Position numbers: made by a program. Positions 6,001 to 9,000 of a stretch of 9,825 bases of DNA are shown here, piece after piece. Origin of the DNA: a virus (Duplodnaviria > Heunggongvirae > Uroviricota > Caudoviricetes); the IMG/VR virus record IMGVR_UViG_2695420874_000001, positions 1 through 9,825 of that record; one strand, 5' to 3'. Position 1 is the first letter of the stretch. Each line of letters starts with the position of its first letter.

Positions 6001-9000
6001 GTGCGTTACACGGCGGCGGTGCCTGCCCGGGTGGTTTATCTGACGGCGGGCATTGACTCGCAGCGAAACCGTTTTGAGATGTATGTCTGGGGATGGGCTC
6101 CGGGAGAGGAAGCCTTTCTGGTAGATAAAATCATCATTATGGGACGTCCCGATGAGGAAGAGACGCTGTTACGTGTGGATGCGGCGATCAACAAAAAATA
6201 CCGCCATGCCTACCATCTGGCGGGAATTGATATGCCGGATTTTGAGCGTGAGGATGACTGGTGGCGCAACGGTCAGAACCTTTACCTGGACAATATGGAG
6301 GCGACTGGTTTTTACAGGATTTCCCTGCCTTCCGCACAGCCTGGCGATATCCTGCTGTGCTGCTTTGGCGCATCGGTGGCCAATCATGCCGCCATATACT
6401 GCGGCAACGGTGAGCTGCTTCACCATCTGCCTGAACAACTGAGTAAACGGGAGAGGTATTCCGAAAAATGGCAACGACGAACGCATTCAGCCTGGCGTCA
6501 CCGCCACTGGCACGTATCTGCCTTCACGGGGATTTACAACGATTTGGCCGCCGCCTCAGCCTGTATGTGAACACGGCAGCGGAAGCCATCCGTGCCCTGT
6601 CGATGCAGATGCCGGGATTCCGCCGTCAGATGAACGAAGGCTGGTACCAGATACGTATTCGCGGTGAGGACACGGCACCGGAGGCGGTGTACGCCCGTCT
6701 TCACGAACAACTGGGTGAGGGAACGATCATCCACATTGTGCCGCGACTGGCCGGGGCCGGAAAGGGTGGACTGCAGATTGTGCTGGGGGCGGCAGCCATC
6801 GTGGGCTCTTTCTTCACCGCCGGCGCAACGATGGCGTTATGGGGTTCAGCCCTGGCAGCCGGTGGTTTTTCTGCCACCACGATGCTGTTTTCACTTGGAG
6901 CCAGCATGATACTGGGTGGTGTGGCCCAGATGCTGGCCCCGAAGGCAAAAACACCGGATTACCGCGCAACGGATAACGGCAGACAGAACACGTACTTTTC
7001 GTCACTGGACAACATGATTGCCCAGGGTAACCCGATGCCGGTGCCTTACGGGGAAATGCTGGTTGGCTCCCGCCGTATATCCCAGGACATCAGTACCCGT
7101 GATGAAGGCGGTGACGGGAAGGTGGTGGTTATCGGGCGGCAGGCATAAAAGCGAAAAAATCCCGCAGTGCTCACGGACAGGAACTGCGGGAGCGTTACGA
7201 AGATTGAGTGTAAGGAATTATTCTTATGTCACGACAAAAACATTAACTCAGAGAGGGAGGATGTGCCGTTCTTTTCAGGGAGAAAGGATTTATCGTCCTG
7301 AGGAATAAAGGTAAGGGGCCCGCCCCTTACCTGACTGATTATTGAATGATGCCGCAGGCCATTCTCGCACCACCACCGCCCAGGGGCTCCGGATGGTCAT
7401 GATGGTTATCACCGCCAGCATGAAGCATGAGAGAACGCCCTTTAATCTCTTTTAATGAGTTCAGTCTCGGGGCCAGGACCGGGTAGTTCGCTTTTCCGTC
7501 ATGCGTCACGAACAGCGCAGGGAGGTCGCCCAGGTGTCCATCCGGAGACCAGGGGCCAAGATGTTTGCCGGTGTTTTTCGGGTCAAAGTGACCGCCAGCC
7601 GATAATGCTGCGACCGGTTTTCCGTCTTTCAGTGCCGGGGCGCAATTTCCTTTTTCGTGCACATGAAAACCATGAATGCCTTCAGACAGAGAGTGAAGGG
7701 CTGGTGTGAACAGCAGACCGTAGGGGGTCTCCTGAATGGTTATTTTTCCAATGCTGACTTCTTTTCCGTCAGCACTGACAAGGTTCATTGGGACTTCCTG
7801 TTCTGCTGCGTATCCGCATGATGCTGCTGTCAGCATGGCAATGGCAGCAATGATTTTACATTTCATAAAACCCTCATTAATTCCGTTAACAGACTGAGCT
7901 TGCTGGTTACAGGGTAACAAACAGCGTTCTGATGATATCGCGCAATAGCTGTGCAATATCCTATCACTGCGATTAATAATACCAATTGAGAGGAACATTA
8001 TGGGCAAAGGTGGCGGCAGGGCGCACACGCCTCGAGAGGCGAAGGATAATCTCAAATCCACGCAGATGATGAGTGTGATTGATGCGATTGGTGAGGGACC
8101 GATAGAAGGCCCGGTGAAGGGGCTGCAGAGTATCCTGGTGAACAAAACCCCGCTGATGGACACGGACGGTAATCACGCAGGTGGTGATACTGGATGCGGA
8201 TAAAAAGCAGATACAGTGCGTGGTAAGACCGCTGCAAATCCTGCGTGCTGACGGGACGTGGGAAAATATTGGCGGGATGAAATAGCCGACGGGTTCACAA
8301 AAACCGGAGTCCGGCTCCGGTTTTTGTTGGCATGCCATGGTGATGTTTGTTAGGAAAGCAAAGATGGCAAAACTGCTGGAGGTTTTGTGGTTGAGTATGC
8401 CAATATAATTAATAGATTAAAGAGTTAGTTGTGAAGAAAATATGGATAAACAGGACGACGAATGCTTTCACCGATAAGGACAACTTTCCATAACTCAGTA
8501 AATATAGTGCAGAGTTCACCCTGTCAAACGGTTTCTTTTGCAGGAAAGGAATATGAGTTAAAGGTCATTGATGAAAAAACGCCTATTCTTTTTCAGTGGT
8601 TTGAACCTAATCCTGAACGATATAAGAAAGATGAGGTTCCAATAGTTAATACTAAGCAGCATCCCTATTTAGATAATGTCACAAATGCGGCAAGGATAGA
8701 GAGTGATCGTATGATAGGTATTTTTGTTGATGGCGATTTTTCAGTCAACCAAAAGACTGCTTTTTCAAAATTGGAACGAGATTTTGAAAATGTAATGATA
8801 ATCTATCGGGAAGATGTTGACTTCAGTATGTATGACAGAAAACTATCAGATATTTATCATGATATTATATGTGAACAAAGGTTACGAACTGAAGACAAAA
8901 GAGATGAATACTTGTTGAATCTGTTAGAGAAAGAGCTGAGGGAAATTTCAAAGGAGCAGGATTCTTTGATTTCTATGTATGCAAAGAAAAGAAATCATGC

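Follow-up and report, generated by a model that had tools for sequence, protein, structure and literature searches.

The question raised by this locus is whether a short open reading frame (ORF) that begins like the tail gene J of a lambdoid phage is what a deletion left of that gene, or a small gene in its own right. The locus lies in a 9,825 nucleotide stretch of Caudoviricetes DNA (positions 1 to 9,825 of IMG/VR virus record IMGVR_UViG_2695420874_000001), the whole of which is referred to here as the window. An ORF listing placed a 67-codon ATG ORF, closed by TAA, at 8000-8203 on the plus strand; it is called J′ below. The analysis led us to regard the region, with very little doubt, as the unremarkable scar of a microhomology-mediated deletion in a decayed lambdoid prophage, whose remnants are pseudogene fragments and not a new gene.

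The junction between J and a Phage_fiber_C reading frame

The first 58 residues of J′ were identical (58/58) to the J protein of a prophage of Escherichia coli 2011C-4251 (NZ_CP027388.1), a protein of 1158 amino acids encoded at 12151-15627 in the fetched locus. A tblastn search of the same residues against phage J genes gave 96.6-98.3% identity and E=3e-31 in the best rows listed, and 388 phage records in all matched the stump. Identity to lambda J was ~77% over residues 1-58. The motif GAGAGGA was found 5 nt upstream of the ATG. These results bear out the initial annotation, which had described J as reduced to a stump that still has its start codon and ribosome-binding site (RBS), with the first ~58 residues matching the gpJ N-terminus. 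The native start and RBS were kept because the deletion began at J codon 59. The final nine residues of J′, HAGGDTGCG, were not J sequence.

Beyond its N-terminal homology J′ retained none of the features of J. The full-length J of the 2011C-4251 prophage has six Pfam J domains (PF24801 FNIII-A, PF13550, PF24421, PF24489, PF09327 and PF12421), each starting at or after residue 86. The first of these, FNIII-A, begins at residue 86 and so lies beyond the break; a Pfam scan of the 67 amino acid stump matched no family. Both the six-domain set and the length of ~1130-1165 amino acids were therefore absent from the stump. In relation to lambda gpJ (TipJ), the tail tip attachment and host specificity protein, J′ shares the start codon, the RBS and the place after gene I, but it keeps 5% of the protein and lacks the FNIII-A, Phage-tail_3, two Ig-like, Phage_Tail_Tip and C-terminal receptor-binding domains.

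A second open frame was found at 8181-8285 (VVILDADKKQ...GGMK*; 34 amino acids, stop codon at 8283-8285). In the best phage records listed, these 34 amino acids matched the end of a small ORF with 100% identity, and identity was ≥99% in 234 of the 297 matching phage records. When this frame was read from 8169 (38 amino acids) it aligned to positions 26-64 of the 64 positions of PF06820, Phage_fiber_C (E=1e-19; 71.1 bits against a cut-off of 25). The model score was thus above the gathering cut-off, and a complete 89 amino acid ORF with its own start was absent. The parent 89 amino acid ORF is annotated at 19012-19281 in the 2011C-4251 prophage, 14548-14817 in phage Stx2_EH1846 and 25352-25621 in OkiPb01683 (fetched-locus coordinates). 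It directly follows a 437 amino acid tail fibre gene, in which Pfam identified phage_tail_N, collagen repeats and Phage_fiber_C, and in intact relatives it is the last gene of the tail-fibre module, ahead of the nleB2/nleC effectors carried as cargo. The remnant in the window has neither a start nor an RBS of its own, its first 50 codons and native start having been deleted, and it is only by chance that a GTG stands at 8181 to open the listed ORF. Both the J N-terminal match and the fibre_C match lie far beyond chance.

A terminator-like hairpin (Table 1) begins 12 bases past the stop of the fibre_C remnant and is followed by UUGG. The stem is stable and its 3′ arm contains UUUUUGU, yet a simple consensus terminator scan gave no call there, probably because the T-run pairs with the upstream A-run within the stem. 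The hairpin lies inside the block that is 99.9% identical to the 2011C-4251 prophage; it is a structure that the parent phage already had behind its last tail-module ORF, and it now trails the remnant. The initial annotation had also reported that the ~100 bp after the stump are open in another frame and end just before a terminator, and this arrangement of frame and hairpin was found again here.

Base-by-base alignment of the window with its left and right parents located the join. Window 6206-8177 corresponded to 10357-12328 of the 2011C-4251 prophage (97.4% identity) and window 8168-9825 to 19164-20821 (99.9% identity), the two blocks overlapping by GGTAATC. This sequence was present at both parental sites, a single copy was kept in the window and there were no filler bases. 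Both flanks were therefore collinear with one intact relative, the genes between them were absent, and a direct repeat with one copy kept marked the join, with no mobile-element end. What the junction records is the loss of DNA between two direct repeats of 7 bp.

The missing DNA amounted to 5,531 bp relative to Stx2_EH1846, 5,532 bp relative to OkiPb01683 and 6,845 bp relative to 2011C-4251, which has an extra insertion sequence (IS) there. The missing interval comprised J codons 59-1158, lom, the 437 amino acid tail fibre gene and codons 1-50 of the 89 amino acid ORF; its RefSeq/GenBank annotation reads gpJ, Ail/Lom, tail fibre and Phage_fiber_C ORF. The earlier suggestion that the start of J was joined to the 3′ end of a downstream gene therefore stands as far as the fusion is concerned, given the collinear blocks and the GGTAATC repeat, but the partner is the 89 amino acid Phage_fiber_C ORF and not lom, stf or tfa. 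A single illegitimate deletion of ~5.53 kb via the GGTAATC repeat fused J codon 58 to codon 51 of this ORF, and it may have followed a RecA-independent route, either replication slippage or microhomology-mediated end joining, as the form of the junction suggests. Because the join is out of frame, J′ acquired nine foreign residues and an early TAA.

Breakpoints at the 5′ end of J and insertion sequences

One possibility is that the left end of this deletion marks a hotspot in J, at codons 55-58 (nt 163-175), where deletions would recur because of a site-specific break or a replication stall and the right end would be chosen by 1-7 nt of microhomology. We consider this rather unlikely. It was raised by the first protein search, in which, among the matches listed, ~17-22 distinct short products left J at codon 56 with different partners, compared to ~9 at codons 57-80. 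Six junctions were confirmed at the DNA level at nt 164-169 of the lambda-like allele (loci L016, L017, L019, L022, L025 and L310), and a further complete-genome match (H129) ended at nt 167. The window's own break, at J nt 169-175 of a different allele, adjoins the nt 164-169 site. The codon-56 stumps shared 90-96% identity among themselves and were scattered between intact alleles; for this reason they were taken to be independent events, and common ancestry was rejected.

The protein homologue search accepted targets of up to 1.75 times the query length (117 amino acids for the 67 amino acid query, 70 for a 40 amino acid query) and listed the best 120; full-length J was never among the matches listed, and the length and breakpoint statistics from that search are biased. 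With the 40 amino acid query the junctions were spread over codons 29-51, so that the position of the cluster tracks the query. When J copies were chosen by an anchor alone (J nt 136-167), 238/238 continued as intact J past nt 167. Pattern scans of the candidate site against controls found one junction at the candidate site (two scans) and one at five control sites, and for the J allele carried by the window the breaks seem to be scattered across nt 163-184. The scan of species representatives returned mostly lambda spike-in contamination, and the informative J copies, ~14 in number, all extended beyond nt 167. A hotspot search of complete genomes showed the best place per record only and was uninformative. 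No paper on a J 5′ hotspot was found in the literature.

Local sequence features were also considered. No Chi site in the right orientation was found from 1.5 kb upstream to 600 nt downstream of the J start, where one-mismatch variants only were present; Chi-site protection of the left end was rejected as no correctly oriented Chi lies nearby. Nor was a significant local hairpin or cruciform found at the J breakpoint (fold z-scores of -0.6 to -1.2). The cluster is therefore mostly a matter of ascertainment, with some residual sharpness remaining, and a hotspot at the J 5′ end is unconfirmed. If it were real, the clustering would point to a specific fragile site, a break or stall in a conserved tail gene, that governs the decay of lambdoid prophages.

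Several observations on J truncations were made alongside this search. At the six lambda-like loci listed above, J ends at ...GGACAGTGA, just before a GGGG run, and continues into varied right partners with 0-5 nt of microhomology. Two other independent fusions of the J(1-56)::Phage_fiber_C type were present in effector prophages (L016, 8001-8294; L017, 709-975); one of them enters the small ORF in frame at codon 47 and the other joins the C-terminus of a large fibre. The products P0028 and P0144 carry nearly the same foreign tail, CNQVN[Y/H]LIPTRVLVKGGEITCK[I/V]LK, and leave J at codons 55 and 41, respectively. As they share the tail and differ in the exit codon, one right-hand sequence has joined J at two positions; the common tail may be the end of a mobile element. 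Many GTDB species-representative assemblies of non-enteric bacteria (Neobacillus, Kitasatospora, Shewanella, Pseudomonas, Bradyrhizobium and others; L028-L056) included contigs that match phage lambda J at 100% identity, with ~1x coverage; these are almost certainly contamination with lambda control DNA.

The involvement of an IS, for instance excision of an IS629/IS3-family element with adjacent deletion, in place of a plain microhomology slip, is improbable. Deletions driven by the IS-excision enhancer are known in enterohaemorrhagic E. coli (EHEC), and an IS3-family element lies inside the tail fibre gene of the 2011C-4251 prophage (16747-17960), within the interval missing from the window. 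However, the three-way alignment showed the J::fibre_C join to be free of IS sequence and IS ends, neither breakpoint coincided with the IS insertion site of 2011C-4251, and the junction has the classic form of a 7-bp repeat with one copy retained. The plain microhomology deletion is therefore preferred.

Carriers of the junction

The exact 67 amino acid product was listed in at least 65 collection blocks, made up of NCBI draft assemblies and ENA metagenomes. The carrier assemblies include GCA_900604115.1, GCA_039878015.1 and GCA_025706025.1. Ten carrier loci were fetched, among them a contig of 1.15 Mb and two contigs from ENA metagenomes. All ten had the same neighbours, both the J::fibre_C junction and a second junction upstream that fuses the terminase gene A to the tail gene K (A::K), and 99.1-100% DNA identity to the window. 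Since flanks, junctions and near-identical DNA are shared in this way, the stump is the clonally inherited product of one event. The element borders chromosomal yodB, zinT and msrPQ-like genes in the carrier contigs; the host lineage is E. coli carrying effectors of the locus of enterocyte effacement (LEE), with the prophage beside chromosomal yodB/zinT. The presence of separate junctions at 6206-6209 (A::K) and 8168-8174 (J::fibre_C), both held by every fetched carrier, upholds the claim in the initial annotation of at least two large deletions. This particular junction is newly described, although the kind of scar is already well known.

Nothing was found that contradicts a deletion. We infer the mechanism (slippage or end joining, possibly IS-assisted) from the junction alone, and the stump keeps its RBS and could be translated into a 67 amino acid peptide. 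The J::fibre_C junction was absent among 5,426 complete E. coli genomes and among the GTDB species representatives, its carriers being draft assemblies and metagenomes only. The A::K junction was likewise absent from the complete E. coli genomes, and no intermediate, that is a genome with just one of the two deletions, was found.

The retained RBS also bears on whether the 67 amino acid ORF is a conserved stand-alone small protein, such as a domesticated J N-terminal peptide that blocks tail assembly of incoming lambdoid phages. We consider this very improbable. The start codon is likewise kept, the exact product recurs across the collection blocks mentioned above and many other short ORFs open with the J N-terminus. 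These other ORFs, however, were heterogeneous, consisting of frameshifts, contig-end partials, J-internal deletions and foreign joins. The final nine residues of J′ are an accidental out-of-frame read, and the ORF ends short of the first J domain and belongs to no Pfam family. According to the initial annotation, a conserved small protein standing alone in many genomes would have spoken against truncation; what was found in the ten fetched loci was a single clonal context. On the grounds of this single context, the accidental C-terminus and the lack of a family, a stand-alone small protein was rejected. Least credible of all is an assembly chimera at a repeat common to several prophages, for although the J 5′ and fibre_C 3′ ends are multi-copy in EHEC and enteropathogenic E. 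coli genomes (11,391 matches spread across 1,790 genomes) and the junction is in no complete genome, the same junction with consistent yodB and zinT flanks was present in all ten independently assembled loci, and a single type of parental prophage aligns collinearly with the DNA on either side of the join.

Neither remnant is expected to be functional; both are pseudogene fragments passed on with the lineage by clonal inheritance. For annotators this is a caution that the 67 and 34 amino acid ORFs should be treated as pseudogene fragments. The two junction sequences are precise clonal markers of the carrier lineage, known from draft assemblies and metagenomes only. The scar documents the immobilisation of one effector-carrying prophage that kept its virulence cargo (a PerC/Pch-like regulator, sodC and nleB2) and is of little importance in itself.

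Gene content of the window and related prophages

The features of the window are given in Table 1. The gene order is holin, lysozyme, Rz, a PerC-family gene, Nu1, the A::K fusion, I, sodC (on the minus strand), J′, the fibre_C remnant, nleB2 and the start of a truncated nleC.

Table 1. Positions of the junction, the gene remnants and the neighbouring genes in the window
Feature	Position	Strand	Basis and remarks
J′ stump ORF	8000..8203	+	67 codons + TAA; codons 1-58 (8000-8173) J-derived, codons 59-67 out-of-frame read-through of the fibre_C remnant
Native J RBS, GAGAGGA	7988..7994	+	Sequence reading; inside the stretch (window 6206-8177) that aligns collinearly with intact relatives
Deletion junction, 7-bp microhomology GGTAATC	8168..8174	+	Three-way alignment of the window with left and right parents
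3′ remnant of the 89 amino acid Phage_fiber_C ORF	8168..8285	+	Last 39 codons, VITQVV...GGMK*; window 8168-9825 vs 2011C-4251 prophage 99.9%
Terminator-like hairpin, 14 bp, A-run/U-run arms	8297..8327	+	Fold -24.1 kcal/mol, z=-3.55; termination function putative
A::K in-frame fusion (N-terminal part of terminase large subunit + C-terminal NlpC/P60 part of tail protein K)	4855..6570	+	Pfam GpA_ATPase, partial GpA_nuclease (3-137 of 294), NLPC_P60
Tail assembly gene I, retained	6567..7148	+	PF06805 Lambda_tail_I in carrier loci; collinear with 2011C-4251 prophage 10718-11299
sodC (Cu/Zn superoxide dismutase), cargo gene	7339..7866	-	PF00080 in carrier loci; annotated in relatives
nleB2 (type III effector arginine glycosyltransferase), intact cargo directly past the scar	8462..9442	+	PF24688 in carrier loci; nleB2 annotated at 2011C-4251 prophage 19458-20438

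The A::K junction, which has ATGC as its microhomology, is in frame and gives a product of 571-590 amino acids. Relative to the 2011C-4251 prophage, 12,656 bp are missing here, from the 3′ end of A through the 5′ end of K. The K′-I-sodC-J′ block of 1.96 kb between the two scars is collinear with the parent. As a result of both deletions the prophage lacks the end of its terminase nuclease domain, has no head genes left and has lost most tail genes, J, lom and the side fibre among them; with the terminase nuclease end, head, most tail and host-recognition genes lost, we infer that particle formation is impossible.

sodC has the same place in the intact relatives, flanked by I and J and encoded on the other strand (2011C-4251, 11490-12017; Stx2_EH1846, 8340-8867; OkiPb01683, 19143-19670). 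A scan for sigma-70-like sites in 7800-8480 found none on either strand, and a sodC promoter as the reason for the retention of the J 5′ end is thus unsupported. The PerC-family (Pch-like) regulator gene was intact at window 3351-3665, and sodC and nleB2 were also retained; the surviving genes are mostly lysis genes and virulence-associated cargo. nleC was truncated (window 9476-9825), its ORF closing at 9766 and its homology to the full-length nleC of Stx2_EH1846 ending at 9807. The same nleC pseudogene is present in the 2011C-4251 prophage, where a tail-fibre-assembly remnant follows it. It is a third scar and probably older, being common to an otherwise near-intact relative.

The 2011C-4251 prophage has the same gene order as the window from esterase/holin onwards and the full series Nu1, A, W, portal ... 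K, I, sodC (minus strand), J, lom, the IS-interrupted fibre gene, the 89 amino acid ORF, nleB2 and nleC′. Blocks shared with the window were 97.4-99.9% identical. The two differ in that the window is without 12.7 kb (3′ part of A to 5′ part of K) and 5.5 kb (J codon 59 to fibre_C codon 50), whereas the 2011C-4251 prophage has the IS3-family insertion in its fibre gene. In Stx2_EH1846 (LC567840.1), a Stx2a phage seen from the tail genes onward, the K-I-sodC (minus strand)-J-lom-fibre-fibre_C order is the same and is followed by nleC, without nleB2. The tail-fibre module is uninterrupted in both Stx2_EH1846 and OkiPb01683.

Prophage decay driven by deletion is well described (PMC6379469). Like the cryptic or 'grounded' E. 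coli prophages Rac, Qin, DLP12 and e14, the window has structural genes deleted and lysis and cargo genes kept (PMC6379469); it differs from them in its chromosomal site and its LEE-effector cargo. Rac-like and Qin-like loci with J stumps were also seen (L022 and L025).

A remnant in E. coli FORC 064 (NZ_CP022664.1), at the same yodB-adjacent site, represents parallel decay. It has a truncated terminase A gene and a 34-codon fibre_C remnant that RefSeq labels 'missing N-terminus'. Its junctions are independent of those in the window: a longer A is joined to J nt 507-636 and this in turn to fibre_C (locus 8847-10691), with the fibre_C break 16 nt downstream of that in the window. The cargo of this remnant consists of NleG-type effectors and not nleB2/nleC. 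The fibre_C 3′ end and/or its hairpin also recurred as additional copies between effector genes in the FORC 064 locus (11397-11563) and the 2011C-4251 locus (21010-21054), with 87-91% identity to window 8182-8356 and 8321-8365, which suggests that the fibre_C 3′ end/hairpin module is a repeated boundary of effector cassettes.

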